Source of the DNA: Patescibacteria group bacterium
GTDB lineage: Bacteria; Patescibacteriota; Minisyncoccia; Phycocordibacterales; Phycocordibacteraceae
Reading direction: 5' to 3'
DNA length: 64,000 bases
Assembly: GCA_018826905.1 (NCBI GenBank)
Contig: JAHJYC010000004.1
Span: forward strand, 207,988-271,987
The position numbers and the translations under genes were made by a program. Below are positions 15,918-46,312 of this stretch, piece by piece (positions within the stretch are counted from its first letter, which is position 1; each line of letters begins with the position of its first letter). Under the pieces are notes generated by a model. That model made no database searches. It worked only from the letters and a program-made list of their open reading frames with translations, and was not told the origin of the DNA.

Positions 15918-17444
15918 TTATGCTTCCTGTGCTGCTAAGAGCGCTTGCAATTGTGCGAGAAGCGCAAGCAACTGCGTAAGAAGTGCTAGACGCTCTGTTT
16001 CAGACATCCCTACACTTCCCTGGTTAAGAAGTGCGAGCGTTTGCGGACCAACTCTCCCTGCAGCAGGAAGTCCATGACTTTTCTGATACGCCGCAACTGC
16101 GTTGTATGTTTGGGTTCCATAAAAACCGGTCGCCTCTCCTGCAAAAAATCCTTCTGTCTTTAGAAGTTCTTGTAGCGCAACAACGTCTGAACCAGACATA
16201 CCTGGAGAAAGCTCTACAGCAAAGCGATAGGTAGAGGCACCAAGCACTTCTCCTACAGAACCAGAATCAATTGATCCCCCAGAAGACGAAGAGCTTGAAC
16301 TACGACGTGAGCCTCCACTGCTACCTCCCCCTCCCCCGCCACCCCCAGAACTTGGTGTGGGAGCGGCAACAACCTCTATTGTTCGCGTTACAGGTGTTGC
16401 TTCATTTCCTGCGGCATCTTCAGCTGAGTAGGTAATGAGGTACGTTCCAGCTACAGCAGTATCTACGTCCTCAACTCCTTCACTCGTAACAGCGACATCG
16501 CCGTCATGAGTATCTGTTGCGGTTGCTTCTATATCAGGAAGCACGAGAGCCTCACCCTCTGTAAGAGAAATAGTTGCGTCTCCAAGAAGAGTTATAACTG
16601 GCGCTTCTGTATCAACGATAAATGAAGAGACCTCGAGTGAAATCTTAGTACCAAGTCCGTCAGGCACACGAAGTATACAATCCACGTACTCTCCGTCCTC
16701 TAGCGGCTCAAACACTACTGTGTTTTCTCCAACAATGGCTTCTGTTGTAAGGCTTGTACATTCTCCTTCATACTCAATAGAGCCCGCGAGAGTACTTCTG
16801 AACGAATATTCTGGTGATGAACTATTTGTTACAGCAGGAACTGCGCCAGTCTCAGTTAAAGTTGCGGCAACAATAACTTCTTTGGTTGTTGTTGATGTGT
16901 TACCCGCACGATCAGTCGCACTGTATACAACTTGGTACGTTCCCGCAGCCTCAGGAAGCACGTCCTGAATAACATCCACCTCTCCATCAAGTGCGTCTAG
17001 AGCGGTAAAGTCTCCTGCATCTTCTGTAATAACTGGTGGGGTACTGTCAAACGTAACGCTAAGCAAGGTATCTGTAGTTGGTCCACTTGATCCACCAGGA
17101 AAAATTGTTTGTAACTTAAAGTTATGAACGCCGTCTGTAAAACTCCATCCACCTGGTGTAAGGTCCCCAAACTCCCAGGTTGTATTAGTCAACCATTTAA
17201 CAAGTCCAAGGTGTATTTCATCAGAAGTTCCTTCTGGAGTGGTGACGAGTCGAAAATCACTTAAATAAGCATCTGCGGTACCTACAAAAAAAGTATTGGA
17301 ACTTTTTGAAGTGATGTTGTCTCCCACAACTCCCGTATCGCTCTTTGCAGCAAGTTCTATCGTTGGAAGCACCTCGTCAGCCCTAACAAGAGCGGGGGCT
17401 GAGACAAAAGCAGAAACTAGAACTAGTGAGAGGATAAATCGCAT
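15918..17444 (-). CDS. Secreted surface protein with Ig-like (DUF5011-type) repeats, a Gly/Ser low-complexity linker and a C-terminal peptidoglycan-binding domain
   Basis: Signal peptide; repeated ...AGTYQVVYSATDRAGN... / ...AGTYLITYSAEDAAGN... modules; C-terminal PG_binding_1-like segment (ALQELLKTEGFF...GPQTLALL). Confidence 0.6.
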   Translation of the reverse strand: MRFILSLVLVSAFVSAPALVRADEVLPTIELAAKSDTGVVGDNITSKSSNTFFVGTADAYLSDFRLVTTPEGTSDEIHLGLVKWLTNTTWEFGDLTPGGWSFTDGVHNFKLQTIFPGGSSGPTTDTLLSVTFDSTPPVITEDAGDFTALDALDGEVDVIQDVLPEAAGTYQVVYSATDRAGNTSTTTKEVIVAATLTETGAVPAVTNSSSPEYSFRSTLAGSIEYEGECTSLTTEAIVGENTVVFEPLEDGEYVDCILRVPDGLGTKISLEVSSFIVDTEAPVITLLGDATISLTEGEALVLPDIEATATDTHDGDVAVTSEGVEDVDTAVAGTYLITYSAEDAAGNEATPVTRTIEVVAAPTPSSGGGGGGGGSSGGSRRSSSSSSSGGSIDSGSVGEVLGASTYRFAVELSPGMSGSDVVALQELLKTEGFFAGEATGFYGTQTYNAVAAYQKSHGLPAAGRVGPQTLALLNQGSVGMSETERLALLTQLLALLAQLQALLAAQEA

Positions 17445-17531
17445 GAAAATAAGTAGGCCAGTAAGCTGTATACGTCTAACTATATAAAGGAATGAGCACT
17501 ATGCAACCCACAAGATGCTAGGATACGAATA

Positions 17532-18338
17532 ATGAAGGTTCTTGGGATATCCCTCCTTTTTCTCTCCCTTTTGCTGTGGACACAAAGCAGTGTCCTTGCC
17601 GCAGGGCTTCCTGCAGGCTTTGCACCCGGTCCAATATGGGTTTCTAAACAATCTCCTTCTGAAGGAGAGCGGATAGAACTCTATGCAGCAGTGTACAACT
17701 CAAGTGATACGTCTATTGAGGGGTCAATAACCTTCCTCGTAGACGATGCTGAGATTGGTTCAGTTCCCTTCTCGCTAAACGATGGGGAGACTAGTATTAA
17801 ATCAGTGGAATGGGTAGCAGTTGTGGGAGCACATAAGATACGTGCCTTCGTAGACACTGCTATAGAACGCAACTCAAAGCAGAAAGCGAATATTGAACAT
17901 GCTGAGGTAGCAAATATTTCTATACACGTAGCAGAAAAGGAACCAGAACCTAAGGTGCTCACTACACTAGATACAGCAGGATCAGCACTTACCAGTGTGA
18001 TTGCCTCAAGTAGCCCCCTCACCTCAAGCATTACTCAGAGCGTAGTACAGACAACCGAATCAATCCGCACTGCTGGAGAAAGTTTCCTCTCGGGCATTGC
18101 AGGCACAAGTACTCCAGCATCCTCGCGTTCTTCTGGAGAGGTGTTGGGTGCAGAAACGTTTGTTGCAGAACCTGAAGAAGAATCCTCTCCTGGATTTATT
18201 GCTCGTATTGCAGAAACACTGCTTCCTATTTTTAGATACCCAGCAATCTTTTATCCAGTCTTTTTAATACTGCTTGGTGCTGTCTTTTGGATACTTGCAG
18301 GAAGGCTTCGCAACCCTGGTAGACGAAGACGTCGCTAA
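17532..18338 (+). CDS. Secreted hypothetical protein with a C-terminal transmembrane anchor and an Arg tail
   Basis: Signal peptide MKVLGISLLFLSLLLWTQSSVLA and a C-terminal hydrophobic helix followed by RRRRR. Confidence 0.45.
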   Translation: MKVLGISLLFLSLLLWTQSSVLAAGLPAGFAPGPIWVSKQSPSEGERIELYAAVYNSSDTSIEGSITFLVDDAEIGSVPFSLNDGETSIKSVEWVAVVGAHKIRAFVDTAIERNSKQKANIEHAEVANISIHVAEKEPEPKVLTTLDTAGSALTSVIASSSPLTSSITQSVVQTTESIRTAGESFLSGIAGTSTPASSRSSGEVLGAETFVAEPEEESSPGFIARIAETLLPIFRYPAIFYPVFLILLGAVFWILAGRLRNPGRRRRR

Positions 18339-23737: not shown

Positions 23738-24958
23738 TTAGTGCCCGTACCCTTCTATGATAGCTCCGTCATATATCTCCTTATTCTCTTCACCAGATAC
23801 CTGCAACACTCCCCACGCACCCCGGTCTACCCGCGCTAACGCATGGTCAACGAAGATGTAGTTTCCTGGGACTTGAGTGTCGAATTCGACAACAGTCGCT
23901 CCGCCTGCCGGAACGAGTGTTGTTTGGACATTGGTGTGAGGCTCGGATGTGAGTGAGGCTTCAGGGAAGACTCGATCAAACACTTCGCCAATCAGGTGAA
24001 ACGAGGAGATGAGATTTACACCTCCGTTGCCCATGTAGATACGCGCAGTCTCTCCTGTTTTCATCTGCATCTTGTCCATGAGACCGTTCGTCTTCCCGTT
24101 AAAGACGATGTAGGTCGGCTGACCCGCGAGCATCGCCTCTGCATCAAAGAGTTGGATACCCTTGCGGCCCATGCCGCCTGAGGCATAGAACTCGCCCTGC
24201 ATAACGTAATATTCATGATCCACTGCCGGCAGACCCTCCTCAGGCTCGACGAGAATGAGACCGTACATGCCATGGGTCATATGGTTCGCGACGTTCGGAG
24301 TGGCGCAGTGATAGACGAAGAGACCGGGATGAAGTGCCTTGAACGTCACGGTTGCGGACTCTCCCGGAGCGACCATGGTAGAGACTGCGCCACCACCAGG
24401 ACCAGTGACGGCATGCAGGTCGATGTTGTGATAATGCAGACTTGTCGGATCGTTATGTAGTGTCAGCTCCACCGTATCCCCTTCCCGCACCCGAATCATT
24501 GGTCCGGGTATCTGTCCATCGAAGGTCCAATAGTTTATGAATACTCCCGGTGCCATTTCGGCTATAACTTCTTTCGTTGTGAGTTCCACCTTCACGAGCT
24601 CAGGTTCTGTGCGCGTAACAGGCACCGGCACGTCGTTTGGATCGCGAGCAATGTTCGCAACGCGTTCAAACTTGTCAAAGTTCCCGAAGAACTTAAGGAC
24701 GCTTCCGAGAGACAGTACCGGCCCCTCGGCAGGACCATAGGTCTTGAGGAAGAATGGATATTCGAATCCACGCGGCAGTCCATGTGGCGCATAGAAGAAT
24801 ATCGACACACCGAGGAATACAGCAACGAGTGTAACAGTAAGCCATGTCGAGTGAAGCTTTCGCAGCACGAGGTATAGAAAGACTCCTGCGAAGATGAACG
24901 CTATGAAGAGACCGAACCATTCGACGAGTACTGTGCGGAGCAGATAAATAATTTCCAT
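23738..24958 (-). CDS. nirK: Copper-containing nitrite reductase NirK, with an N-terminal transmembrane anchor
   Basis: Type-1 and type-2 copper ligand motifs (LHYHNIDLHAVTGPGGGA and FVYHCATPNVANHMTHGMYGLILVEP); two cupredoxin domains; an N-terminal hydrophobic helix of about 50 aa. Confidence 0.85.
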   Translation of the reverse strand: MEIIYLLRTVLVEWFGLFIAFIFAGVFLYLVLRKLHSTWLTVTLVAVFLGVSIFFYAPHGLPRGFEYPFFLKTYGPAEGPVLSLGSVLKFFGNFDKFERVANIARDPNDVPVPVTRTEPELVKVELTTKEVIAEMAPGVFINYWTFDGQIPGPMIRVREGDTVELTLHNDPTSLHYHNIDLHAVTGPGGGAVSTMVAPGESATVTFKALHPGLFVYHCATPNVANHMTHGMYGLILVEPEEGLPAVDHEYYVMQGEFYASGGMGRKGIQLFDAEAMLAGQPTYIVFNGKTNGLMDKMQMKTGETARIYMGNGGVNLISSFHLIGEVFDRVFPEASLTSEPHTNVQTTLVPAGGATVVEFDTQVPGNYIFVDHALARVDRGAWGVLQVSGEENKEIYDGAIIEGYGH

Positions 24959-24967
24959 GAGAAAGGA

Positions 24968-25312
24968 TTAGTAGGGTATCTTGCACTCATCAAAGCAGTG
25001 CGCATCGCGATTCAGGCTATAGATGCGTTCACGACCTGAATCAATACTTGCAACTGCATCGACTGAACGTAATACGTTCAGGTGATGGGTAATGGTTGGC
25101 TGTTGTAGCTCGAGCTCTGCGGTCAGCTCAGTAACGGTCATTCCCTCCTTGGCCTTTCCAAGAAGGCAGACGAGCTGATACCGACTACGGCTCCCTACCA
25201 CCTTGAAGCAATCGGGGCAAAGCTCCTCTTCAGCACTATCTACCCACGACGGACGCTTGTACGTGCGCTCCGCAGCTACTTTCTTAGTTGTCCCCACCTT
25301 TTTCTTATTCAT
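24968..25312 (-). CDS. ArsR/SmtB-family transcriptional regulator
   Basis: Winged helix-turn-helix (MTVTELTAELELQQPTITHHLNVLRSVDAV); Cys pairs (CPDC, CFDEC) suggest metal sensing. Confidence 0.8.
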   Translation of the reverse strand: MNKKKVGTTKKVAAERTYKRPSWVDSAEEELCPDCFKVVGSRSRYQLVCLLGKAKEGMTVTELTAELELQQPTITHHLNVLRSVDAVASIDSGRERIYSLNRDAHCFDECKIPY

Positions 25313-25377
25313 AGACAGTCATCTATTGATACACTAATAAACCCATAGACACTTATCAATATATCATCATCTTCGCT

Positions 25378-27663
25378 ATGCCACGAACAGAATCCCCAGT
25401 TATAGAATCAGTCATTAAGAGAGACGGAACGATTGTCTCGTTCGAGCGAACGAAGATAGAGAACGCAATCGCAAAAGCGCTCGAGGCAACCGGCGAAGGA
25501 TCGCGTGAGCAATCCAAAGTCATCGCAGAATCGGTTGTAAACTCACTGAGCAACACGCTACGAGCAGACGCTCGGACAATTCCCTCGGTGGAAGAGGTGC
25601 AGGACAGCGTTGAGACCGAACTCATGAAGGCAGGGTTCGGCGCGACTGCCAAGGCATACATTTTGTATCGCGTGCACCACGCCAAGTTGCGGGAAGCTTC
25701 CTCTGAGGTGTCCCCTTCCATACGAGCCATAGTCGCTGAAAGCAAGAAGTATTTTTCCAATCAACTTTCTGAGTTCGTCTATTACAGCACGTACTCCCGC
25801 TGGCTCGATGATGCGGGACGCCGTGAGGCATGGGTTGAGACGGTTAACCGCTATGTAGCATTCATGCGCGAGAATCTAGGAGACACGCTCCTAGAAAACG
25901 AGTACGCAGAGATACGCGAGAACATGCTAGCAATGAAAGCAATGGGCTCAATGCGTCTCCTATGGAGCGCAGGAGCACCTGCACGCGCATCGAACGTCTG
26001 CGTGTACAATTGCTCGTTCATCGCACCAGCCACTTGGCAGGATTTTGCTGAGATTATGTATATATCCATGTGCGGCACCGGCGTCGGCTTCTCTGTCGAA
26101 CGTCAGACCGTTAAGATGTTGCCACGTATTGAACCGCAGACAGGAGAAATACTTGCTGAATATATAATAGAAGATTGCAAAGAAGGCTGGGCGGATGCAC
26201 TTGCCCATGGACTCACTGCCTGGTCTTCTGGAAAGGACGTTTCGTTCAACTACGAATATATCCGACCGCGCGGCGCAAGACTGCGTACTATGGGAGGGCG
26301 GGCGTCGGGCCCTGAGCCGCTCAGGAACCTGCTCGACTTCGCTCGCGAGCGCATGCTCGAGCGCCAGGGTCGACACCTCTCGACGCTCGACGTACATGAC
26401 CTTGTCTGCAAGATAGGCGAGATTGTCGTTGCGGGTGGAGTGCGAAGAAGTGCCTTGATTTCCCTCTCCGATCTCGACGATATGGAGATGCGCGAGGCAA
26501 AGAACGGCCAGTTCTATGTTACCCAGCCGCAACGTGCCATGGCGAACAATTCCGCCGTCTATAACGAGAAGCCAAGCGCGATTGCGTTCATGGAGGAGTG
26601 GCTGAACCTCGCACGAAGCGGGTCTGGAGAACGCGGCATTTTTAATCGCGGAAGTCTCAAGGGGCAGCTGCCCGAGCGTCGGTGGCCTCTTTTTGAGAAA
26701 GATGCTGCGCAAAGCGGCACCAATCCATGCGGCGAGATAATTTTGAAATCAAAACAGTTCTGCAATCTAAGCGAGGTCGTCGTGCGCCCAGAGGACACGC
26801 TAGAAACTCTAAAAGAGAAAGTGCGTATTGCGACCATACTTGGAACCTACCAAGCATCTTTGACCTCTTTCCCCTATCTCTCACCTGAGTGGAAGAAGAA
26901 CTGCGAGGAAGAGGCTCTGCTGGGAGTTTCCATGACCGGCCAGTGGGATAACCTCGCTGTACGCGATTCTGCTGCACAGAGTGCTCTTAAGGAAGTCGCG
27001 CTCGAAACTAACAGAATCTATGCCAAGCGGTTCGGCATCAATCCGTCCACTGCAATAACCGCTGTAAAACCGTCAGGGAACGGTTCGCAGCTCTTTGATT
27101 GTGCATCAGGCATGCATCCACGACATGCAAAATATTATCTGCGTCGTGTCCGGATAGAAGGACACAATCCGCTCAAGCGGCTTCTTGAGGACGCTGGGGT
27201 TCCCTGCGTGCCGGAAGTTGGGCAGACGAAAGATACTGCAACAACCTGGGTGCTTGAGTTCCCGATTAAAGCTCCAGAAGACGCCGCTGTGAAGGGTGAC
27301 CACACAGCACTCGACCAGCTCGAGTACTGGAAGATGGTGAAGGAGAACTATTGCGAGCACAATCCGTCGGTTACGGTAACGATCGCTGACGACGAGTGGC
27401 TCGCGGTCGGCAATTGGGTATACGCGCACTGGGATATTGTTGGCGGTCTCTCATTCCTTCCGAAAAGCGAACACGTGTACCAGCTCGCTCCCTATGAGGA
27501 AATCAGCAAGGAACGGTATCTTGAGCTTGCATCCACATTCCCTGACATAGACTTCGCACGGTTAGTCCAGTACGAAACGAGCGATACGACCACCGGAGCG
27601 AAGGAACTCGCTTGCGTATCGGGAACATGCGAGGTTGACGTGCTTACTGCACCCACATCATAA
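25378..27663 (+). CDS. nrdJ: Adenosylcobalamin-dependent ribonucleotide reductase (class II, NrdJ/RTPR-like) with an N-terminal ATP-cone
   Basis: ATP-cone (VIKRDGTIVSFERTKIENAIAKA); class II thiyl-radical loop (NPCGEIILKS); C-terminal Cys pair (ACVSGTC) as in the L. leichmannii RTPR tail. Confidence 0.85.
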   Translation: MPRTESPVIESVIKRDGTIVSFERTKIENAIAKALEATGEGSREQSKVIAESVVNSLSNTLRADARTIPSVEEVQDSVETELMKAGFGATAKAYILYRVHHAKLREASSEVSPSIRAIVAESKKYFSNQLSEFVYYSTYSRWLDDAGRREAWVETVNRYVAFMRENLGDTLLENEYAEIRENMLAMKAMGSMRLLWSAGAPARASNVCVYNCSFIAPATWQDFAEIMYISMCGTGVGFSVERQTVKMLPRIEPQTGEILAEYIIEDCKEGWADALAHGLTAWSSGKDVSFNYEYIRPRGARLRTMGGRASGPEPLRNLLDFARERMLERQGRHLSTLDVHDLVCKIGEIVVAGGVRRSALISLSDLDDMEMREAKNGQFYVTQPQRAMANNSAVYNEKPSAIAFMEEWLNLARSGSGERGIFNRGSLKGQLPERRWPLFEKDAAQSGTNPCGEIILKSKQFCNLSEVVVRPEDTLETLKEKVRIATILGTYQASLTSFPYLSPEWKKNCEEEALLGVSMTGQWDNLAVRDSAAQSALKEVALETNRIYAKRFGINPSTAITAVKPSGNGSQLFDCASGMHPRHAKYYLRRVRIEGHNPLKRLLEDAGVPCVPEVGQTKDTATTWVLEFPIKAPEDAAVKGDHTALDQLEYWKMVKENYCEHNPSVTVTIADDEWLAVGNWVYAHWDIVGGLSFLPKSEHVYQLAPYEEISKERYLELASTFPDIDFARLVQYETSDTTTGAKELACVSGTCEVDVLTAPTS

Positions 27664-27668
27664 GCACC

Positions 27669-28214
27669 ATGAAAAATCCTTCCCTGTCGCTCACCACTCA
27701 GATCCTGCTCTTGCTCGTGCTCCTCATGATCGGCATCGGTTCTCGGTTCCTGCCGCATCCGCCATCAGCCACGGCACTGACTGCCGTCATGTTTGCCAGT
27801 GCCCTGTACCTACGACCCCACCTAACCATTGCGCTTACTTTGTTGCTTCTGTTGTGGTCAGACATGACACTGGGGAGCTACGAACTACCAGTGATGGCTT
27901 CGGTATATGGATCGTTCCTGATAATCGCAGGCTTCGGGATGTGGTTCGCGCGCACGAAGAACATCGGTGGACGAGTACTCATGCTCGCGAGCTCTTCGGT
28001 CCTGTTCTTTCTCATAACAAATGCAGCTATCTGGTATTTCACCCCTTGGTACGCAAAGGACATAAGCGGACTCATGCTGTCCTACTCGCTCGGCCTCCCG
28101 TTCTTGAAGAACATGCTCCTTGCTGACTTCCTCTACACGCCGGCTTTGATCGCCGCACTTGCGCTCGTCTTTAGTTCGAGTCCAGCACCTAAAACTTCCT
28201 TGTATGTATCGTAA
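27669..28214 (+). CDS. Small multi-pass membrane protein (possible ECF-type S-component or vitamin-uptake protein)
   Basis: 181 aa with five or six transmembrane helices; it starts 5 nt after nrdJ and overlaps the next gene. The function is inferred from genomic context only. Confidence 0.35.
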   Translation: MKNPSLSLTTQILLLLVLLMIGIGSRFLPHPPSATALTAVMFASALYLRPHLTIALTLLLLLWSDMTLGSYELPVMASVYGSFLIIAGFGMWFARTKNIGGRVLMLASSSVLFFLITNAAIWYFTPWYAKDISGLMLSYSLGLPFLKNMLLADFLYTPALIAALALVFSSSPAPKTSLYVS

Positions 28215-28644
28215 ATGGACACTCATTGTTGCGGGCATACTTGCTATTGCATCCACTGCACTCATACTCTTTTCTTCTTATGAGCGAGCAGTTGAGTTGT
28301 CGCCATCTCAAGACGTATCGGAAGAAGTCTCTAATGAAATACCGCTGCGTCAGGAATCAGTAGCTGAAGAGGTTGCTCCAGCGATACCCGCTCGCACACA
28401 TGTTCTTATTGCGGATACGGCTGGCACCGTGGAGTCCTCAATGCAGAAAGAGTATGAAAGAGGGTCGCTCGTGTATACGAGCACTTCATATCCGACACTC
28501 GGATCATTCTTGGAGTCTATTAATGGACTGAAGAACGAGAATGGTTTCTATTGGATGCTCTACATAAACGGATCATCCGCTTCTGTTGGAATGTCCCAAG
28601 CGTATGTGGTACCTGGCGATCTAATCGAATGGCGCTATGAATAA
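28204..28644 (+). CDS. Membrane-anchored DUF4430-like (transcobalamin beta-domain-like) protein
   Basis: N-terminal transmembrane segment; C-terminal YWMLYINGSSASVGMSQAYVVPGDLIEWRYE pattern reminiscent of DUF4430. The ATG at 28204 is chosen. Confidence 0.45.
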   Translation: MYRKWTLIVAGILAIASTALILFSSYERAVELSPSQDVSEEVSNEIPLRQESVAEEVAPAIPARTHVLIADTAGTVESSMQKEYERGSLVYTSTSYPTLGSFLESINGLKNENGFYWMLYINGSSASVGMSQAYVVPGDLIEWRYE

Positions 28645-30622
28645 GTACCTTCTTCTGGCCCTATTTCTGGTTCTTGCACTCGCAAGTCCACAAAGCGTCC
28701 GCGCTGACGAGACAGCTTCGACTACGCCCGAAGTCCTTGCAACAACGACCCCTATCGTTGAGCTGCCCGAACCCGTAACTGAGCCAGTAATTGCTACTAC
28801 GACTGGTGTGGTAGCAACATCTACAGAATTCGTAACAGCCAGTACGACCGATGCAGTAGCAATATCGACTGAGCCTACCCCGACCGCACTGCCTTCAGTA
28901 GATATCGCGCTCACGGTCGCAACCGGGGAGCACATTCTCTTTGCGGATTCTATTACCGTAACCGCCTGCGCGCCCCGTCCTGATATGGAGCCTGCTGTCA
29001 GCGGATACTGTGCACTTGAGCAATCTGGCGCTCCTATGGCGTGGACATGGTATGGAAACGACGCTTTTGTCGATTCAATTAGTGGAGTCGGGAACGACTA
29101 TGAGGGCAATGCATACTGGAATTGGTTCTCGGATCTCTCTTATGGCATGACCTCTCTCAATGCACATACACTACATGCAGGCGAGTCCCTAATCGTCAGC
29201 ATCGGGCGCTTTCCTCTACGCCTCCAGACCACCTCCGATTCAGAACAGGCAGGGAACGAGATCATTATTACGGTAGAGCAGTTTAGTTTTGACAGTACCT
29301 ACAGTCCTATATGGGAGCCTGCAGCAAGCAGTACGATAGTCATACATGACACTCTCTACGAAACTACAGGAGACGGTACGTTGTCTTATAATCTTCCTGC
29401 CTCAGACTCAATAGAAATCCACGCGCGCAAGGAAGGCTACCTTGATGCAACTCCCCTGACCGTACGTATCACTGAGGCACCAGAATCCGACACAGGCAGC
29501 AGCTCAAATCCTGGCCCGGTCCCAAAGCCAGCCGATGCTGTTGCTGCTGCAGCGAGCTTCCTTCTTGAGTACCAACATGCAGATGGGTCGTTTGGAACTT
29601 CCCTTTTGTCTGACTGGGCTGCACTCGCATTCAAGAGTGCGAACATGTCTACTAGAACATTGAAAGAATATCTTGAAGGCGGACCAGGCTCTCTCAAAAC
29701 AGCTACTGACTTCGAGCGACGAGCCATGGCACTCTCCGCACTCAGAATCAATCCCGTTCAGAAAGTCAGCGAAGTTCTGAATCGGTTTGATGGCACACAG
29801 ATCGGAGATCCGTCTCTTTGGAATGACGACATCTTCGGACTTATTGCGCTTCGGGCTGGCGGATACGATGAGTCTGACATAGTGATTAGAAGTGTTGCCG
29901 CATCGCTTATCGCCGTCCAGAAAAGCGACGGTTCGTGGGGAGGCGTCGATCTTACTGCTGCCTCTATACAAGCACTTGTGCCTATCTCTTCGCTTCCTAG
30001 CGCCGAGTCTGCACTTGCAAAAGCACGAGAATATCTCGTATCCCGCCAGCAACCGGATGGGTGTTTCGGGAATAGCTTCGCGACAAGCTGGAGCATCATG
30101 GCAATTGAAGCAATTGGGGAGTCTCCAAATACATGGACCATGACTGGTGGCGCGACACCGCTATCCTGTCTCCGTGCGCTTCAGTCTCCTGACGGAGGAT
30201 TTGAGGCAGGAGCGAGCGAAGACACAAGGATTTGGGCGACTGCTTACGCCCTACCAGCACTTACAGGCAAGACGTGGGATTCCTTGCTTATTCGTTATCC
30301 AAAGGCGCAGAGTATAGACACGCCTCCCATTAATAATTCACATGCAACATCGACCGATGAGGTGCTGCCGCCAGAAGACACGACACTTCCTATAGCCGTC
30401 CCCACACCAATCGAACTGCCCATAATTTCCGAAATCGTTTCAGAACCTTTTATCGCAAAAATAGAGGAGGCTTCACCAATACTCACAAACCGCAGACTTG
30501 CTGCATCTGCAGGATCTGCCTTGGCAGATACCGGACTTCCTGCTGAACAGCGTTCCAACGACTCGGGTCTATGGGTATCGATTATGCGTTTCTTAATGTC
30601 GTTGTTTGGGTTCCTCTTTTAA
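28637..30622 (+). CDS. Large surface protein: signal peptide, a DUF4430-like region, prenyltransferase-type alpha/alpha-toroid repeats, and a C-terminal hydrophobic anchor
   Basis: Repeated Q..DGSFG / SDGSWGG / QPDGCFG / SPDGGFE motifs of the prenyltransferase/terpene-cyclase repeat fold; overlaps the previous gene by 8 nt. Confidence 0.55.
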   Translation: MNKYLLLALFLVLALASPQSVRADETASTTPEVLATTTPIVELPEPVTEPVIATTTGVVATSTEFVTASTTDAVAISTEPTPTALPSVDIALTVATGEHILFADSITVTACAPRPDMEPAVSGYCALEQSGAPMAWTWYGNDAFVDSISGVGNDYEGNAYWNWFSDLSYGMTSLNAHTLHAGESLIVSIGRFPLRLQTTSDSEQAGNEIIITVEQFSFDSTYSPIWEPAASSTIVIHDTLYETTGDGTLSYNLPASDSIEIHARKEGYLDATPLTVRITEAPESDTGSSSNPGPVPKPADAVAAAASFLLEYQHADGSFGTSLLSDWAALAFKSANMSTRTLKEYLEGGPGSLKTATDFERRAMALSALRINPVQKVSEVLNRFDGTQIGDPSLWNDDIFGLIALRAGGYDESDIVIRSVAASLIAVQKSDGSWGGVDLTAASIQALVPISSLPSAESALAKAREYLVSRQQPDGCFGNSFATSWSIMAIEAIGESPNTWTMTGGATPLSCLRALQSPDGGFEAGASEDTRIWATAYALPALTGKTWDSLLIRYPKAQSIDTPPINNSHATSTDEVLPPEDTTLPIAVPTPIELPIISEIVSEPFIAKIEEASPILTNRRLAASAGSALADTGLPAEQRSNDSGLWVSIMRFLMSLFGFLF

Positions 30623-30823: not shown

Positions 30824-31222
30824 TTAACTAAATTTAACAATGAAATTGTACATACCCATGCTGCACGTACCCTGTAGGGATGTTCCCGTTTGAGATGTAC
30901 CGATATCTATTATCTCCTCTCCCGTTTGAGGAAGAGCCTTCTGGTATCCAATGGAGCGTATTACTAGAGCAGTAGAACAATCATAGGTGCCACTCGTTTT
31001 GACGATGAGTTTTGTTGGAATATCAGCCTGTGCGGACGAAACCTTGGGGAAATAACCGCCCTTCGCGTCGATAGTTATGTACTGAATACCATCCCTTATT
31101 TCAATATTCTGCCCGGACTGCGAAGACACAGTTTTGGCACTGTTATTTGAATCGCCTAGGAAAATGATGCCAATTCCTATGACCAGTCCAAGCGTGACGA
31201 TTGACAGAGCGGTTTTATTCAT
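30824..31222 (-). CDS. Small secreted protein, last gene of the cop operon (possibly a cupredoxin-like metal-binding protein)
   Basis: Signal/anchor helix; C-terminal TCSMGMYNFIVK loosely resembles the Cupredoxin_1 ligand loop; context is csoR-copA-HMA. Confidence 0.35.
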   Translation of the reverse strand: MNKTALSIVTLGLVIGIGIIFLGDSNNSAKTVSSQSGQNIEIRDGIQYITIDAKGGYFPKVSSAQADIPTKLIVKTSGTYDCSTALVIRSIGYQKALPQTGEEIIDIGTSQTGTSLQGTCSMGMYNFIVKFS

Positions 31223-31231
31223 AAAGCGTAA

Positions 31232-32239
31232 TTATATATTAAATAACGGACTGATGATGCCAAGGCCGGCAAGGCCCGCGAGAAGCGCAAATAGTCCAAG
31301 ACCTATCACCACCACTCCTGCCGACTTAAAGAACAGTGGTGCATATTTCGAGTGAGCAAATGATGCAGAGCCAAAAGAGAGCAACAAGAGCATCGGAAGT
31401 GTTCCAAGAGCAAACGCAAACATGATAAGCATTCCTGACACAAAGGATCCACTACTCAGAGCAGATACCTGCATTGACTGCGTAAAACCACAAGGCAAGA
31501 AAAACGTCGCAAAACCTAGAATGAGCGGAGTAAGGGTTTTGTGTTCGATCCTTCTAAAGAAATTGAATAAGTTTGAAGGTAAGGAAACTTTATTCTTTGC
31601 AAATACTCCAACCAGATTCAGACCAAGCAACAACATTACAACGGAAGCCAGAATGCCCAGTAGTGCGGTAAGCGTGAAATTTATACCAATTGCCCCACCA
31701 ATCGCACCAAGGACACCACCTAATATAGCAAAGCTCACTATTCTTCCAGTGTGAAAGAGAGTAAAAGTTTTTGTATCGCTCACATTATCCTGCGATATCT
31801 TTGCGGAAAGCGACAACACCAATCCTCCCACGATTGCAAGGCAACTCGAGACCGATGCAATAAGGCCTATGATGAAGCTTGTGATAGGGGTTGTCTGTCC
31901 GCCAAGACCGAGATTGAGGACTCCGGACTTCTGCAATAGAAAGAACAGCACAAGGAGACCAAGTCCGATCGGAAGCGCCTTCCAGATAACATCACTTTCA
32001 TGCTTTACCTTTGCTGATTTCTCTGCAGACAAAGTGTAGCCATTCGACTGAATCTTACTTGTCAGAACTCTTGCAAGCTCTTCCGGATTCTCTTCATTAT
32101 AGGTCTCGACTTCTACCATTTCCCTTTTTAGATCGGCGCGTGCGCTCCGTACTATGTCCTGTTCGTCTAAAATGTCCTCGATAAGGATTTTACAGGACGT
32201 GCAGTGGGTACCAGAAACATGGAATGTGTACGTATTCAT
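31232..32239 (-). CDS. Heavy-metal-associated (HMA) domain fused to a DsbD_2/TauE-like transmembrane domain
   Basis: N-terminal HMA motif (GTHCTSC); membrane domain with conserved Cys (SSCLAIVGG, FLPCGFT). Confidence 0.65.
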   Translation of the reverse strand: MNTYTFHVSGTHCTSCKILIEDILDEQDIVRSARADLKREMVEVETYNEENPEELARVLTSKIQSNGYTLSAEKSAKVKHESDVIWKALPIGLGLLVLFFLLQKSGVLNLGLGGQTTPITSFIIGLIASVSSCLAIVGGLVLSLSAKISQDNVSDTKTFTLFHTGRIVSFAILGGVLGAIGGAIGINFTLTALLGILASVVMLLLGLNLVGVFAKNKVSLPSNLFNFFRRIEHKTLTPLILGFATFFLPCGFTQSMQVSALSSGSFVSGMLIMFAFALGTLPMLLLLSFGSASFAHSKYAPLFFKSAGVVVIGLGLFALLAGLAGLGIISPLFNI

Positions 32240-32241
32240 AT

Positions 32242-34536
32242 TTACAATTTCTTAGCTTTAATGCGGAGCGAGTTAGATACCACAGAGACCGACGACATCG
32301 CCATAGCAAAGCCCGCAAAGACAGGATTTAAGAGCCAGCCAAAGATTGGATAGAAGACACCTGCCGCAAGTGGAATACCGACAATATTGTAGATGAATGC
32401 CCAGAAAAGATTTTGCTTGATTCCTCGCATGGTGATTTTTGAAAGCTTGATGGCCTTCACGAGCTTTGAAATATCGCCACCGAGCAATGTGATGCCTGCT
32501 GATTCGATAGCCACATCCGTACCTGTTCCCATGGCAATACCCACATCGGCTTGGGCAAGTGCGGGAGCGTCATTCACCCCATCACCCGCCATAGCAACAA
32601 TGCGACCTTGTGATTGAAGCTCTTTTATTTTTTCAAGCTTATCCTGCGGCAACACGTGGGCAATCACATCATCGATACCGACGAGAGAAGCCATATATTT
32701 TGCAGCCTTCTCATCGTCACCAGTAAGCATCACGACTTTGATACCAAGTTTGTGAAGATCGGCAACGGCCTGTTTTGATTCTTCTTTTATTTCGTCAGCC
32801 ACCATAACAAAGCCGAGTACACTGTCTTTTGTTGTGAGAATAACTGGGGTTTTTCCCTGAGAGGTAAATTCGTTTAACTTGGTCACATCAAACGGAATTT
32901 CAAGATCGCTGACAAGTTTTGCGTTACCGACAAAATATTCAGTGCCCTTAACCGTTCCCTTGAGACCCTTGCCCTGTATTCCCTCAAAGCCAGAAACATC
33001 AGATGGGGAGATATTTTTCTCTTGTGCATAGCTTACTATTGCGTGTGCAATTGGGTGTTCAGACTTCTTTTCAAGCGATGCAAGTATCGAGACGAGCTCC
33101 TCATCAGAGAGTGTTGAAAGATTTTGTATATCAACAAGAGTTGGCTTTCCTTTGGTAATCGTTCCCGTCTTATCAACCACAACCGTGTTTACCTTATGTA
33201 GCTTTTCGAGAGTAGCCGCATCTTTGATGAGAATTCCTTCCTTAGCACCCTTCCCGACACCCACGATGATTGCAGTCGGTGTCGCAAGCCCAAGGGCACA
33301 AGGACAAGCTATTACAAGAATTCCCACAAATGAGACAAGGCCAAAAGATAGTGCCTGAGAGAATCCTAGGTACTGCGACCCGACGATAAGCCATGTTCCC
33401 AGTGTAAGGAAAGCAATTACAAGCACGATTGGTACAAAGACTGCTGATATCTTGTCTGCCAATGCCTGTATCGGGGCCTTGCTTCCTTGTGCCTCCTCCA
33501 CCATTTTTATGATCTGAGCCAAGAGTGTTTCCGACCCGACCTTCGTCGCCTTAAATGTGAATGAGCCGCTAGTATTTATGGTGCCAGATACAACAGCATC
33601 TCCTTCTTTTTTCTGTGCTGGCATCGGTTCTCCTGTAACCATTGACTCGTCAATGAACGATTCCCCTTCAGTGATAACGCCATCTACAGGAATCTTTGCA
33701 CCTGGTTTTACAATAATAGAGTCGCCATACTTAACATCGTTTACGGAAATCTCAACTTCTTTACCATCTCTAACAACGAGAGCTGTTTTTGCTTGAAGGT
33801 TGAGAAGCTTCTCAATGGCATCACCAGTCTTAATCTTTGATTTTGCCTCAAGATACTTGCCAAGAGCGATAAAAGTAATGACAACAATCGTCACATCGTA
33901 GTACTGGTAGTCGACGTTTATGAATGGACGCAGAACATCCTCAAAGGCACTGACAGCAAAACTGTACAGAAAAGCAGCAACTGTACCGATACCGATAAGC
34001 GTATCCATGTTTGCCTTGCCGTATCTAAGAAACCTATAAAAGCCGAGTAGGTACGGCTTACCAACTACGAAAAGGATATATGTTGCAAATATCGGAAGAA
34101 GATGATGAAAGAACTCCTTGAGCGTATAACTCATTGCAGAGACAACTCCATACTCGGAGAGAATGTCCCAGCCCATAACGAAAGCAGCAAATAGTGCGAG
34201 CGGAATAGCCGAAAGTACCTTCATTCGCATATCGGCAACTTCTACAAGCTTCTCTTTTTTGGACTGATTCAATCCAAGATGAGCCTCGTGTTCGCCGGCA
34301 GACATACCCATTTCTTCAGCAGAAGGAGAGACTTCCAGAGTGTACCCGAGTGGCTCAATGTGTCTAGAAAGATCGTGCGGATTCGTCTTTGAAGGATCAA
34401 AAGAAACCTTCGCTTTTTCTGTTCCGTAGTTCACTTCGGCAGCATGTACACCCTCAACTTTCTTAAAAGTCTTTTCGATAACCGACGAACATGACGCACA
34501 GTGCATTCCTTTTACTTTATAAGTTTGTGTATGCAT
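32242..34536 (-). CDS. copA: Copper-translocating P1B-type ATPase
   Basis: N-terminal HMA (GMHCASC); CPC transmembrane motif (ACPCALGLATP); DKTGTIT phosphorylation site; GDGVNDAPAL hinge. Confidence 0.95.
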   Translation of the reverse strand: MHTQTYKVKGMHCASCSSVIEKTFKKVEGVHAAEVNYGTEKAKVSFDPSKTNPHDLSRHIEPLGYTLEVSPSAEEMGMSAGEHEAHLGLNQSKKEKLVEVADMRMKVLSAIPLALFAAFVMGWDILSEYGVVSAMSYTLKEFFHHLLPIFATYILFVVGKPYLLGFYRFLRYGKANMDTLIGIGTVAAFLYSFAVSAFEDVLRPFINVDYQYYDVTIVVITFIALGKYLEAKSKIKTGDAIEKLLNLQAKTALVVRDGKEVEISVNDVKYGDSIIVKPGAKIPVDGVITEGESFIDESMVTGEPMPAQKKEGDAVVSGTINTSGSFTFKATKVGSETLLAQIIKMVEEAQGSKAPIQALADKISAVFVPIVLVIAFLTLGTWLIVGSQYLGFSQALSFGLVSFVGILVIACPCALGLATPTAIIVGVGKGAKEGILIKDAATLEKLHKVNTVVVDKTGTITKGKPTLVDIQNLSTLSDEELVSILASLEKKSEHPIAHAIVSYAQEKNISPSDVSGFEGIQGKGLKGTVKGTEYFVGNAKLVSDLEIPFDVTKLNEFTSQGKTPVILTTKDSVLGFVMVADEIKEESKQAVADLHKLGIKVVMLTGDDEKAAKYMASLVGIDDVIAHVLPQDKLEKIKELQSQGRIVAMAGDGVNDAPALAQADVGIAMGTGTDVAIESAGITLLGGDISKLVKAIKLSKITMRGIKQNLFWAFIYNIVGIPLAAGVFYPIFGWLLNPVFAGFAMAMSSVSVVSNSLRIKAKKL

Positions 34537-34537
34537 A

Positions 34538-34813
34538 TTATTTCCTCTTTAGCTTATAAACTTTCAAAATCTCTTCCTTGGCTTTTTCGGTCTGTCCAGA
34601 CTTTACCTGGTTCATGATGCATCCCCCAAGGTGGTTCTCAAGTAATAAATCTTCAACATTGGAAAGCCCCTGCTTAACTGCAGATGTTTGAGTAATTACG
34701 TCTATGCAGTACGTATTGTTCTCGATCATCTTTTGTAAGCCACGAACCTGACCCTCGATGAGCTTAAGTCGACGGATGATCTTAGACTTGTTTTTGTCTT
34801 CTAAATATTTCAT
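34538..34813 (-). CDS. csoR: CsoR/RcnR-family copper-sensing repressor
   Basis: DUF156 fold with the C-H-C ligand pattern (YCIDV...HLGGC). The ATG at 34813 is chosen because the upstream extension would read through the operator palindrome. Confidence 0.8.
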   Translation of the reverse strand: MKYLEDKNKSKIIRRLKLIEGQVRGLQKMIENNTYCIDVITQTSAVKQGLSNVEDLLLENHLGGCIMNQVKSGQTEKAKEEILKVYKLKRK

Positions 34814-34825
34814 GTGTAATAGTAT

Positions 34826-34843
34826 ATACCCCCCAGGGGGTAT
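34826..34843. promoter_or_regulatory. CsoR-type operator: perfect GC-tract palindrome ATACCCCC-CA-GGGGGTAT, 13 nt upstream of csoR
   Basis: Seen directly; it matches the known architecture of CsoR operators (a pseudo-palindrome with C/G tracts, for example the B. subtilis copZA operator). Confidence 0.55.
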
Positions 34844-34987
34844 CAAGCAAGTCAAACAAAACTACCAGTGGAAATGGTTTTGTTCTGGACACTACTCTGA
34901 ACAATTATGCCTCTTTAGGATAGGCCTCTCGACGCACGGAAACCTAGCATAAGTTAACTACCCGAGACTGAGATTGGAACTGTATAC

Positions 34988-39549: not shown

Positions 39550-40020
39550 CTAGTACACAACCTTAAGTCCGCGCTCAATGCGACGCGGGTTGGTTGTGTC
39601 ACACGTGTTATACCCGTTTGCGTATATACAGCTCGTCTTTCCATTACTACAGGTTGCTCCGCCACTTGCTTTATACACCTCAACTACAGCTGAAGTACCT
39701 CCCCCAGAACATGAAACAGAGAATGTGGCCTTTTGTACATTATTTGAAATGCTTGCTGTTACAGGGAACGAAACTCCAGTACATGAGACAGAGGAACTTG
39801 GGGAGCCATACGCAAATGCTCCCTCCTGTTGATCCCAATACAGCGCACACTCAAGCGCAGAATCTGCTGCATAAAATGCTGTTTGTGATTGTTTTGCTGT
39901 TGAAGAAAGAACCACTTGCTTGTATGCAACATCAAGAAGAGCGAGCCCTACAGACAAAAGAACTGACGTGAGAATAACGGCAATGAGTAGTGTGAATCCT
40001 TTTTGCGGTGTCTTCATCAT
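39550..40020 (-). CDS. Type IV pilin-like protein (pseudopilin/minor pilin)
   Basis: Prepilin leader plus hydrophobic helix (MMKTPQKGFTLLIAVILTSVLL). Confidence 0.6.
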   Translation of the reverse strand: MMKTPQKGFTLLIAVILTSVLLSVGLALLDVAYKQVVLSSTAKQSQTAFYAADSALECALYWDQQEGAFAYGSPSSSVSCTGVSFPVTASISNNVQKATFSVSCSGGGTSAVVEVYKASGGATCSNGKTSCIYANGYNTCDTTNPRRIERGLKVVY

Positions 40021-40541
40021 AGCCAGTTGTGTAGGGTCTCAGTAACAGTAGTAGTGTACGGCACCGTCCGTGTCATCCATGACATCGTTACCGTCACTCG
40101 CACCTCACTCACGCTAACAACAGTGAGTCGTACTCTGCGAGTAAAGGGGGTGACTGTTCCTGCACCTTGCTGATTATAAACATTCGCTGAGTTTATATAT
40201 AAAGGAGTTATCGCTGTGTTTACCGTTCCCTGTTTTGCGTCAACAACACAGTCTGCAGCTATGCAGTTACGTCCCCCAGTTCCGTCCAAGCCATATAGCC
40301 ACGAATGAGTCGCCCCTGGGTTTTGCAAGTTATACAGATAATTCCCGTCGCGAATACTACGCACATACTCAATAGCCTCTTGTGCAAGCGAGGAGGCTAT
40401 AAGCTGATCACGAGCACTTCGTGATGCGTTCAGTGATTGCTGAACAGCATAAAAGGGACCCACCAAAGCTAGAGCAATGATAGTAATCGCTACAAGCGTT
40501 TCAACAAGCGTAAATCCTTTTTGTGGGTTGGGTTTCATCAT
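40017..40541 (-). CDS. Type IV pilin-like protein (pseudopilin/minor pilin)
   Basis: MMKPNPQKGFTLVETLVAITIIAL: a class III signal peptide with the GFTLVE motif. Confidence 0.65.
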   Translation of the reverse strand: MMKPNPQKGFTLVETLVAITIIALALVGPFYAVQQSLNASRSARDQLIASSLAQEAIEYVRSIRDGNYLYNLQNPGATHSWLYGLDGTGGRNCIAADCVVDAKQGTVNTAITPLYINSANVYNQQGAGTVTPFTRRVRLTVVSVSEVRVTVTMSWMTRTVPYTTTVTETLHNWL

Positions 40542-41089
40542 ATGTCTATAAATCGCTGTGTGGCCGCTGTCTGAATCGTAAACTCCGTTGTCTTATTCGC
40601 ATCTATCCTCATTGTGCCCTTAATAACGAAAATGACCTGTGGTTGGACCGTGTCCCCTGTACCCACACCCTTCACATAAAAGGTAAGGGACTGAACGGTG
40701 ATAAGAGGATCTGTGAGAGATGTTGCACGTGCCTCGCTACATCCACCCGTACACTGACCGATGGTGCCATCACCGCGTTTGAAGTACGTAACCGTCTGCC
40801 CCTGACTGTCTACGAATGAAATGCTTGTTCCCCCGTTCACGCAGTTTGGTGACACAGAACTTCCGTTACATGCGTATGCAGTTCCTGTACGCATGTTGCG
40901 CGCCATACTCTCAACGGCAAAAGACAAGCTTGTTACGAGTTGGTTGTTTGCTCGTGCCTGCCTATCAAGACTTATAAGGGTGAGGTACGCCCCTGTTACC
41001 ACCACCATCACGAGGCTAAAGATTCCCAAAGAGACAATCATCTCCAGGAGGGTGTATCCGCGTTGTGGTTTTTTTATACTCATGGGCAT
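40538..41089 (-). CDS. Type IV pilin-like protein (pseudopilin/minor pilin)
   Basis: ...KKPQRGYTLLEMIVSLGIFSLVM prepilin motif. The start is taken at the internal ATG to avoid overlap. Confidence 0.6.
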   Translation of the reverse strand: MPMSIKKPQRGYTLLEMIVSLGIFSLVMVVVTGAYLTLISLDRQARANNQLVTSLSFAVESMARNMRTGTAYACNGSSVSPNCVNGGTSISFVDSQGQTVTYFKRGDGTIGQCTGGCSEARATSLTDPLITVQSLTFYVKGVGTGDTVQPQVIFVIKGTMRIDANKTTEFTIQTAATQRFIDI

Positions 41090-41760
41090 ATTCCTACAGA
41101 TACCTGACCAACCTTCGTCACACTTACACATCGCTCAGTTCCTCCATCAGGAGACGCGAGGTATATAGTAGCGTCCTCAAGAGTCATAGGCGCTCCCGAG
41201 CGCTTCCCTGTAATAATGGACTGCGTGTTGGGGCGCAGATATACAATATCTAACGAATCCAAATTCGTTCCAGAACAACGAGTTTCATTTAGTGCTTTAT
41301 CAAATCCACAAAACTTACTTATCTTGAACCCCCTATTGAAGGTTGATGTACGAACTCCTTCAGTCGGCAGTTCATACGTGCAGTTCCCTGGCCGTGCTTC
41401 TGGTCCAAAGGCAACCGTGTGTCCGGGGCATACTCCTCCCTGACTTGATCCAGGGATACCTGGGTTTGTGTCTGCGAAAAGTATATATGAGGTTAGAGAA
41501 CCGCTACTAAAGTGGACTCCGTAGCCGGCATTCTGGAAGCCGCCAAAATACCTACTGGAAAGTCCGAGAGACTGTGCTTCTCGTATTGAGAACGCGAGCG
41601 TGTAGGCAGTATCAGTAAGAATAACTGACTTATTGAAAGAAGACTGTCCGTTTATAGCGATGGCAGTAACAATAACAATAATGGCAAGCACAACGAGCAT
41701 CTCCACGAGAGTGAAGCCTTGCGGAGCTTTTTTTAGAACGTGAGTAGAAGAGGATTCCAT
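41080..41760 (-). CDS. Type IV pilin-like protein (pseudopilin/minor pilin)
   Basis: ...KKAPQGFTLVEMLVVLAIIVIV prepilin motif. The true start may be an internal GTG that would give a short leader. Confidence 0.6.
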   Translation of the reverse strand: MESSSTHVLKKAPQGFTLVEMLVVLAIIVIVTAIAINGQSSFNKSVILTDTAYTLAFSIREAQSLGLSSRYFGGFQNAGYGVHFSSGSLTSYILFADTNPGIPGSSQGGVCPGHTVAFGPEARPGNCTYELPTEGVRTSTFNRGFKISKFCGFDKALNETRCSGTNLDSLDIVYLRPNTQSIITGKRSGAPMTLEDATIYLASPDGGTERCVSVTKVGQVSVGICP

Positions 41761-42485: not shown

Positions 42486-42580
42486 TCCTCTCAGTATACC
42501 GCCCCGTCCCACCATGAACGCAAAAACCCTGCCTCACATGAGGACAGGGTCTTGTGCGTTACCCGTTTAACTCCGTAGTG

Positions 42581-43033
42581 CTATGGACACGCAGTGTCAG
42601 TGTTTGCTGGGGCTGCTGAAAGCTCAGCCTTCTGTCCAGTTGAGTCCAAACACCAGTACTTAGTGTTGTCACTAATCAACTGAGAGGCAACCATGTAGGT
42701 GTCAGATGTTGATGTACAAACAATTGTTCCTGCACCGTTTGCAGTGTCAATTGCAGCGATTGCGTTTCCAATTGTTGTGTTTGCAAACAACGTATCTGCT
42801 GCTGAACAGCTCGCGCCTGCTCCTGTATTTGCCACTCCGTAGCTGTTGCTGTTCTCGCTGTAATAGAGTGCTGCCTGAGACGCAACAGAGTCAGTGTTTG
42901 CCTTAATGGCAGCATCATTTCCCTTTGAGCGTGCCGTGTTGAGTGAGGCAAGCACAACGGAAGAGAGGATACCAATAATGGCGATAACAACGAGGAGCTC
43001 GATCAAGGTGAAACCGCGCTTCATGCTAGTCAT
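42581..43033 (-). CDS. pilA: Type IV pilin (major-pilin-like)
   Basis: MTSMKRG|FTLIELLVVIAIIGILSSVVLASLNTARSKGNDAAI: canonical class III signal peptide and alpha1 helix; C-terminal Cys pair. Confidence 0.8.
   Translation of the reverse strand: MTSMKRGFTLIELLVVIAIIGILSSVVLASLNTARSKGNDAAIKANTDSVASQAALYYSENSNSYGVANTGAGASCSAADTLFANTTIGNAIAAIDTANGAGTIVCTSTSDTYMVASQLISDNTKYWCLDSTGQKAELSAAPANTDTACP
42905..43015. repeat. 111-bp perfect direct repeat, copy 1 (pilin N-terminal helix coding region)
   Basis: Identical to 43381..43491, checked by direct comparison. Confidence 0.9.
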
Positions 43034-43059
43034 AAGAGTAATCTGAGTTAGCTAATAAG

Positions 43060-44848: not shown

Positions 44849-44851
44849 AAG

Positions 44852-46302: not shown

Positions 46303-46312
46303 ACAGTAGAAA

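Follow-up and report, generated by a model that had tools for sequence, protein, structure and literature searches.

The mammalian carriers of vitamin B12, transcobalamin, intrinsic factor and haptocorrin, clamp one cobalamin between two domains, a beta-grasp and an alpha6/alpha6 toroid. The SLBB superfamily, to which this beta-grasp belongs, was defined by Burroughs, Balaji, Iyer and Aravind in 2007 (PMC1796856), who predicted that bacterial SLBB-toroid fusions scavenge B12, noted that a second SLBB paralogue is often present in the operon, and predicted that the animal carriers originated in bacteria. The permuted order, in which the toroid is C-terminal, was already recorded there in bacteria, for example in a Bacillus protein (gi 42782379). 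Here we describe a gene of this kind in a stretch of 64,000 nucleotides (nt), called the window below, from a Patescibacteria group bacterium (GenBank assembly GCA_018826905.1, contig JAHJYC010000004.1, positions 207,988 to 271,987). The gene, the open reading frame (ORF) 28637-30622 on the + strand, encodes 661 amino acids followed by a stop codon. Its product is most probably a cell-surface corrinoid (vitamin B12) capture protein, a bacterial equivalent of transcobalamin and intrinsic factor in which the two domains stand in the opposite order, and is a further case of the computationally predicted bacterial SLBB-toroid kind, misannotated in public databases. Patescibacteria (the candidate phyla radiation, CPR) are bacteria of ultra-small size, most of them uncultivated, and lack the ability to make the majority of cofactors themselves.

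An initial annotation, made from the letters of the window and a list of its ORFs, had listed a signal peptide, a Thr/Pro linker, a DUF4430-like segment, repeats and a tail within the 661-residue ORF, and all of these are found. It had also called the architecture unusual; the layout is real, but as one described for bacteria in 2007 it is not unusual. In an AlphaFold2 (AF2) model of the target, built on an alignment of 78 sequences, the mean pLDDT (predicted local distance difference test) is 81.6, all folded parts are above 90, and disorder is confined to residues 17-80 and 556-643. The N-terminus, MNKYLLLALFLVLALASPQSVRA followed by DE, is a signal peptide with predicted cleavage after V-R-A, and an N-terminal hydrophobic stretch is present in 76 of the 78 family members. 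The linker that comes next (residues 24-82) has 17 Thr and 7 Pro among its 59 residues. It leads into the beta-grasp, a beta-sandwich spacer, the toroid, a second disordered tether and a C-terminal helix (Table 1); for the spacer, one relative has a CarboxypepD_reg match. ORFs on the minus strand that overlap the target (28621-28935, 29437-30141 and others) are without support and are taken as spurious.

The toroid is formed by twelve helices within residues 301-542, modelled with pLDDT above 90, so that the repeats do make up an alpha/alpha toroid, as had been proposed. There are four repeats of the form Q-x-x-D-G-x-[WF], at residues 313, 428, 471 and 516; four had been claimed as QxxDGxWG-type, but the literal QxxDGxWG is present at 428 alone. 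Residues D326, W327, R361, Q388, D397, D398, F400, Q428, W485, D519, R531, W533, Y537 and W547 are invariant. Foldseek aligns the target toroid with the alpha-domain of intrinsic factor (2pmv_B) over 277 columns, with a template modelling (TM) score TMt of 0.65 and a root-mean-square deviation (rmsd) of 4.9 A; for transcobalamin and haptocorrin its E values run from 4e-6 to 5e-5. It also finds the small squalene-hopene cyclases 8paj and 8pak (TMt 0.58), and lists complement C3, C5 and alpha2-macroglobulin (TM 0.13-0.28, rmsd 15-34 A) as well as a polysaccharide lyase. The gathering score of Cobalamin_bind (PF01122), 25, is passed by the orthologues P0046 (30.5 bits), P0109 (35.5) and P0044 (31.6), and a TED_complement Pfam match is present in 19 of 68 relatives. 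The DxDD motif is absent from the whole target protein, as is the CGEQ thioester motif, and the cyclase family models give 37.1 bits against a cut-off of 851 (TIGR03463), 26 against 322.7 (TIGR01787) and 16.1 against 431 (TIGR01507). A related toroid was met in Vescimonas fastidiosa pMM35_01 (locus L087, 810301-815001), the single weak tblastn match obtained when annotated relatives were sought on plasmids. There it is part of a 1,566-residue 'cadherin-like beta sandwich domain-containing protein', the toroid segment of which is 30% identical to target residues 357-541 and has no B12 genes nearby.

The second half of the presumed clamp is the beta-grasp. Its DSSP order in the AF2 model is strands 87-95 and 100-109, helix 123-129, hairpin 134-139/142-148, and strands 162-165, 184-188 and 193-199; a hairpin following the helix is typical of the transcobalamin clade. 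The initial annotation had seen in the segment GNAYWNWF...VSIG, which corresponds to residues 157-190, an echo of the DUF4430-like ORF immediately upstream. This echo is true homology. When family residues 82-200 are compared profile to profile with the small DUF4430 proteins, hhalign gives a probability of 96.5% and E 8e-10 (target residues 140-192), and in orthologues of the same layout the DUF4430 Pfam model scores above its gathering cut-off of 23.8 (P0046, 26.5 bits; P0109, 27.4), with matches that fall on target residues 134-190. Within the domain C111, C125 and W161 are invariant, and Y160, W163, H177 and E183 nearly so. H177, near the YW-x-W motif, is kept in 65 of 68 sequences. Transcobalamin has a histidine ligand, and by loose analogy H177 is a candidate for a residue that coordinates cobalt or contacts the corrin. 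Longer members of the family, of 780-1,120 residues (P0025, P0033, P0037, P0051, P0092 and others), have two DUF4430 stretches before the toroid and also retain the separate small DUF4430 gene upstream.

The protein is extracytoplasmic, as is indicated by the signal peptide together with two pairs of cysteines: C111/C125, invariant in the family, and C476/C511, which co-vary, both being present in 35 sequences and both absent in 33, with no mixed cases. These same features rule against a cytoplasmic location and uphold the earlier assignment as a surface protein. The hydrophobic C-terminal tail of that assignment, LWVSIMRFLMSLFGFLF (residues 645-661), is present and recurs in the family, but it is amphipathic, not uniformly hydrophobic; in helix 645-660, S648, R651, S655 and G658 form a polar face. 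In many clades the very C-terminus is an amphipathic helix of the recurring pattern W-x3-h-x2-[FL][FL]-x2-L[FL], without a basic tail, and other clades have a classical transmembrane helix plus a Lys/Arg tail. The amphipathic helix could serve as an anchor specific to the lineage, or it could dock onto a partner in the membrane.

The target is the last gene of an operon that starts with nrdJ and continues with a DUF6580 gene and a small DUF4430 gene, the successive spacings being +5, -11 and -8 nt. The small DUF4430 gene overlaps both of its neighbours, by 11 and 8 nt, when its start is placed at the ATG at 28204, as the gene caller does; the mechanical ORF begins at a TTG at 28159. The product of nrdJ, which has the Pfam domains ATP-cone, RNR_Alpha and RNR-II_ins_dom and matches NCBIfam TIGR02505 (RTPR) at E 1.3e-78, is a class II ribonucleotide reductase (RNR) and is the B12 consumer of the operon.

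Relatives of the target are widespread. A word-indexed search gave 318 matches, and a profile search 1,047 cluster representatives at E <= 1e-30; the family is present in at least 475 Patescibacteria species genomes and comprises about 1,000 clusters at 50% identity. The 80 loci that were retained are by title nearly all from Patescibacteria, a few having evidently mis-assigned bin labels. NCBI names these proteins 'terpene cyclase/mutase family protein' or 'prenyltransferase/squalene oxidase repeat-containing protein'. Neighbours were counted in the fetched flanks of 79 usable loci that came from an unbiased scan of species genomes. A small DUF4430 gene adjoins the large gene on the same strand in 67 of them, and in 64 of the 70 loci that have at least 700 nt upstream; 61 of the 67 small proteins have an N-terminal hydrophobic stretch. 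DUF6580 is found in 33 of the 79 loci and class II RNR in 24, and 8 of the loci have a gene for an adenosyltransferase of the PduO type. One locus, L001, carries all of these in the order RNR-II, homologue, PduO, DUF4430, DUF6580.

The strongest evidence for B12 comes from the riboswitches of the relatives. The scan covered 60 related loci, and 24 of these contain a riboswitch of the cobalamin clan at the Rfam gathering score, belonging to the classes AdoCbl (RF01482), AdoCbl-II (RF01689) or Cobalamin (RF00174). All are on the operon strand and directly 5' of the small DUF4430 gene or, in L017, of the large gene; no cobalamin riboswitch is found elsewhere in the approximately 880 kb of related loci. 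In 14 of the 24 riboswitch loci DUF6580 is not found in the fetched sequence, which implies that the riboswitch there heads an operon starting with the two surface proteins. In L042 its place is between nrdJ on one side and the uptake genes on the other, which means that uptake is regulated apart from the enzyme.

The DUF6580 protein, on which we found no literature, is predicted to be a CbrT-like S-component that carries B12 across the membrane. CbrT is the experimentally proven cobalamin-specific S-component in an ECF (energy-coupling factor) transporter of Lactobacillus delbrueckii (Santos et al. 2018, PMC5997447; PDB 6FNP), and the gene for it is part of a cluster, nrdJ-cbrS-cbrT-pduO (PMC5997447). 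When a profile built from 77 DUF6580 proteins is searched against the PDB, there is a single match, 6fnp_A, which is CbrT (E 2.9e-5 over 80 residues). In its AF2 model (pLDDT 92) the DUF6580 protein has six helices, and the 12 best Foldseek matches of this model are all ECF S-components with TM 0.49-0.63, at weak E values of 0.05 to 0.6, none of them reaching E <= 0.001. CbrS and CbrT were reportedly named by Rodionov et al. in 2009. The literature found for 'ECF' together with CPR concerned sigma-factor usage only.

We infer that B12 is the ligand of the target because its operon contains nrdJ and a CbrT-like neighbour, and because related loci have cobalamin riboswitches; PduO in the clusters of relatives also points to B12. 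The initial annotation had favored a ligand-binding scaffold over a prenyltransferase, and the single toroid, the lack of DxDD and of a thioester motif, and scores far under the cyclase cut-offs bear it out. It missed that the two domains are those of transcobalamin and intrinsic factor, and it missed the ligand, which can be named from the context as cobalamin. In the mechanism that we propose, the C-terminal amphipathic helix would keep the mature protein attached to the membrane through a flexible tether of ~85 residues, presenting the beta-grasp and the toroid with the beta-sandwich as a spacer between them; the two long disordered linkers would give it reach. By analogy with transcobalamin, the beta-grasp and the toroid, the latter with its loop face, would clamp B12 between them, and the binding face of the toroid would bear D326/W327, R361, Q388, D397/D398, Q428, W485, D519, R531/W533, Y537 and W547. 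The captured B12 would then be handed to DUF6580, probably via the small membrane-anchored DUF4430 protein, and DUF6580 would move it across the membrane. In some relatives the PduO adenosyltransferase would first adenosylate it, after which it would serve the class II ribonucleotide reductase, NrdJ.

Several observations weigh against this assignment. The target itself is under the threshold of every Pfam and NCBIfam family (SQHop_cyclase_C (PF13243), 23.7 bits against a cut-off of 26.1; Cobalamin_bind, 18.3 against 25; PF00432, 15.5 against 26.5) and has no DUF4430 Pfam match. Among its relatives there is nearly a tie, with a match at E <= 1e-3 to Cobalamin_bind in 48 of 68 and to SQHop_cyclase_C in 47 of 68. 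Against PDB sequences the profile of the family picks up squalene-hopene cyclase at E 3e-10, with transcobalamin not among the matches; the target as a single sequence matches squalene-hopene cyclases best (E 4e-6) and transcobalamin behind them (E 0.2-0.5), and the orthologue P0109 matches transcobalamin at E 0.11. Because the profile finds cyclase only, and because the counts are 47 and 48 of 68, sequence alone cannot set the toroid nearer to transcobalamin than to the cyclases. It is the fused SLBB domain and the genomic context that break the tie between the two branches. The inter-domain geometry of the model is uncertain, given a predicted TM score (pTM) of 0.56, and in the literature we found no B12-binding assay for any bacterial member of the kind.

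The locus and its transport step add points of the same sort. No cobalamin riboswitch reaches the gathering score anywhere in the window, and none reaches E <= 1 over 24500-29000. The gap upstream of nrdJ is 65 nt, and the lack of a riboswitch fits an operon headed by a B12-using enzyme instead of by uptake genes. No PduO-type adenosyltransferase was found within the window, so the genome must encode PduO elsewhere or import adenosylcobalamin (AdoCbl) directly. An ECF energising module (EcfT, EcfA/A') is found neither in the window nor near the cluster in 83 loci, and CbiQ is absent from the Pfam lists of the loci examined. A dedicated ECF ATPase near the cluster was considered and rejected: ORFs resembling ATP-binding cassette ATPases lie at <=1.5 kb in just 2 of the 83 loci, and both are exporter-sized. 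CbrT alone is inactive in E. coli (PMC5997447); BtuM works as a solitary transporter (PMC6072759). Transport by DUF6580 could be energised by a shared ECF module encoded elsewhere, by analogy with group II ECF systems, or DUF6580 could act alone in the manner of BtuM.

A further point against B12 is the basis of the first rival explanation, namely that the target captures heme or another tetrapyrrole. In the only related system that has been studied genetically, deletion of lsa1836-1840 of L. sakei impaired heme uptake and complementation restored it, and this operon encodes Lsa1840, which is transcobalamin alpha-like, and Lsa1839, which is beta-like; in kind the two are homologous to the domains of the target. 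However, heme binding to both of these proteins was docked, not measured, and no heme-related gene was seen adjoining the cluster in the loci examined. The target shares its operon with a class II RNR; among its relatives PduO, a cobalamin adenosyltransferase, lies inside the cluster in 8-9 cases, and the riboswitches belong to the cobalamin clan. We consider heme or another tetrapyrrole an improbable ligand. It is more improbable yet that the target is a general surface scaffold, such as an adhesin, glycan binder or protease trap, with a TED-like or glycan-active toroid that is unrelated to cofactor uptake. The TED_complement matches of relatives would agree with this, as would complement C3, C5, alpha2-macroglobulin and polysaccharide lyase among the top Foldseek matches and the Vescimonas surface protein, with its related toroid and no B12 context. 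Yet the missing CGEQ and the poor TM and rmsd values rule out a thioester-domain identity, and a scaffold leaves unexplained the riboswitches, the neighbours nrdJ, PduO and the CbrT-like gene, and the obligatory DUF4430 partner. Finally, that the target is a terpene cyclase/prenyltransferase superfamily enzyme, with a polyprenyl or an envelope lipid as its extracellular substrate, has hardly any probability left, since the four QW-like repeats, the squalene-hopene cyclases as best PDB sequence matches and the Foldseek matches 8paj/8pak are set against one 12-helix toroid in place of the two-barrel (beta-gamma) cyclase body, no DxDD, scores far below the TIGR03463 and TIGR01787 cut-offs and below that of PF13243, secretion with disulfide-type cysteine pairs, fusion to a ligand-binding SLBB domain, and a gene context of B12, not isoprenoids. 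The lack of DxDD, the single barrel, secretion and the sub-cut-off scores likewise rule out the terpene cyclase identity given by the database name.

The capture of B12 at the cell surface thus remains the preferred function, and several consequences follow from it. It corrects the 'terpene cyclase' annotation across the family, gives a testable function to DUF4430 and DUF6580, with a function prediction for the whole DUF6580 family, and defines a module of B12 dependence, nrdJ plus uptake, that could guide cultivation via B12 supplementation. The family also supplies many diverse bacterial sequences with which to test the 2007 proposal that the animal B12 carriers were acquired from bacteria. 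A broader proposal, which we put forward tentatively and would not ourselves bet on, is that Patescibacteria possess a lineage-wide B12 relay, often riboswitch-controlled and without a dedicated ECF energising module, in which the target captures, the small SLBB protein hands over, and the CbrT-like DUF6580 protein, possibly solitary, transports. As part of this proposal the toroid, in which cyclase-like QW repeats are still intact, might be a living intermediate that connects toroids of the terpenoid-cyclase type with the alpha-domain of the animal carriers. We found no literature that links Patescibacteria to transcobalamin-like proteins or B12 uptake.

Table 1. Features of the operon and of the target protein (positions in the window), and examples of riboswitches (positions in the related loci named)
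Feature	Position	Strand	Extent or description	Basis
nrdJ, class II (adenosylcobalamin-dependent) ribonucleotide reductase with ATP-cone	25378..27663	+	first operon gene	
DUF6580 membrane protein	27669..28214	+	181 residues, six helices	Pfam DUF6580 E 5e-31
Small DUF4430/SLBB protein	28204..28644	+	146 residues, N-terminal membrane anchor	Pfam DUF4430 E 2e-11
Target, transcobalamin-like surface protein	28637..30622	+	661 residues	
Signal peptide	28637..28705	+	residues 1-23	read from sequence; helix 3-16 in AF2 model
Disordered Thr/Val/Pro/Glu-rich N-terminal linker	28706..28882	+	residues 24-82	composition; pLDDT below 50
SLBB/DUF4430 beta-grasp	28883..29236	+	residues 83-200, hairpin after helix	DSSP, hhalign, orthologue Pfam matches
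Seven-stranded beta-sandwich spacer	29237..29491	+	residues 201-285	strands 208-277, pLDDT above 90
alpha6/alpha6 toroid	29519..30304	+	residues 295-556	12 helices; Foldseek; Pfam Cobalamin_bind in relatives
Disordered Pro/Ala/Ser/Ile-rich tether	30305..30565	+	residues 557-643	pLDDT below 50; composition
C-terminal amphipathic helix, presumed membrane anchor or docking helix	30566..30619	+	residues 644-661	helix 645-660 in model
Riboswitch examples in related loci	L003 7067-7202; L038 7038-7177; L029 7254-7320; L037 7072-7138; L042 7278-7433		19 further loci	

The operon is flanked on both sides by copper-handling genes, all on the minus strand. Those on one side (23738-25312) encode a multicopper oxidase together with an ArsR-type regulator, a pair that is also present upstream of nrdJ in L001; those on the other (30824-34855) encode a cupredoxin-like and an HMA-DsbD_2 protein, a P-ATPase of the CopA type and a CsoR-like repressor. 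Over 24001-30000, which takes in the ArsR gene, nrdJ and the B12 uptake genes, the G+C fraction is 0.51-0.54, compared with ~0.47 in the remaining window; this could reflect transfer or a gene-specific composition. A scan of the operon for promoters and terminators gave nothing over the shuffled expectation. Farther along, a type IV pilus cluster (39550-50806, minus strand) contains genes for a PilB-like ATPase (46313-48046), for PilT-like (44852-45919) and PilC-like (43640-44848) proteins, for PilM and a prepilin peptidase, and for several N_methyl pilins. One related Patescibacteria locus, L073, has a group I intron match at the Rfam gathering score (16805-17559, minus strand).

Among known proteins, the squalene-hopene and other class II terpene cyclases and the beta subunits of protein prenyltransferases share with the target membership of the alpha/alpha toroid superfamily and QW-like repeats; unlike the cyclases, the target is secreted, has a single barrel and no DxDD, and stays under the cut-offs of the families in score. 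The BtuG and BtuH proteins of Bacteroides are surface B12-binding lipoproteins of high affinity that feed a membrane transporter and are controlled by B12 riboswitches. They are functional analogues of the target, but their folds are unrelated, BtuG being a beta-propeller, and they work with BtuB, a TonB-dependent protein of the outer membrane. The ECF-like system of L. sakei resembles the target cluster in having genes for extracellular alpha and beta modules of the transcobalamin-like type beside an S-component; it differs in that alpha and beta are separate proteins, the operon includes an ECF module, and heme is the substrate reported. The nrdJ-cbrS-cbrT-pduO cluster of L. delbrueckii (PMC5997447) and the target cluster have in common an RTPR-type class II RNR, a CbrT-related S-component, PduO (in some relatives of the target) and the lack of an energising module. 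However, no transcobalamin-like capture protein is reported for the L. delbrueckii cluster, and DUF6580 is just distantly related to CbrT.

The target fits the kind of protein described by Burroughs et al. By description, these and the target family alike have a signal peptide, an SLBB domain fused to the N-terminal side of a toroid, a surface anchor and a second SLBB paralogue in the operon. The 2007 proteins, however, are from Firmicutes, have LPXTG anchors and have CbiO/CbiQ in the operon, whereas the target family is Patescibacteria-wide, has a C-terminal amphipathic or transmembrane tail and an interposed beta-sandwich, and is linked to DUF6580 without a nearby ATPase or T-component. With the transcobalamin, intrinsic factor and haptocorrin of mammals (PF01122 and, C-terminal to it, a DUF4430/SLBB domain; PDB 2bb5, 2pmv, 4kki), to which the sequence similarity of the family is marginal (E 0.1-0.5), the target shares secretion and the combination of a toroid with a hairpin-bearing beta-grasp. 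The mammalian carriers are soluble and place the toroid first; the target is membrane-tethered, places the beta-grasp first and the toroid second with the beta-sandwich between them, and retains QW-like repeats in its toroid.

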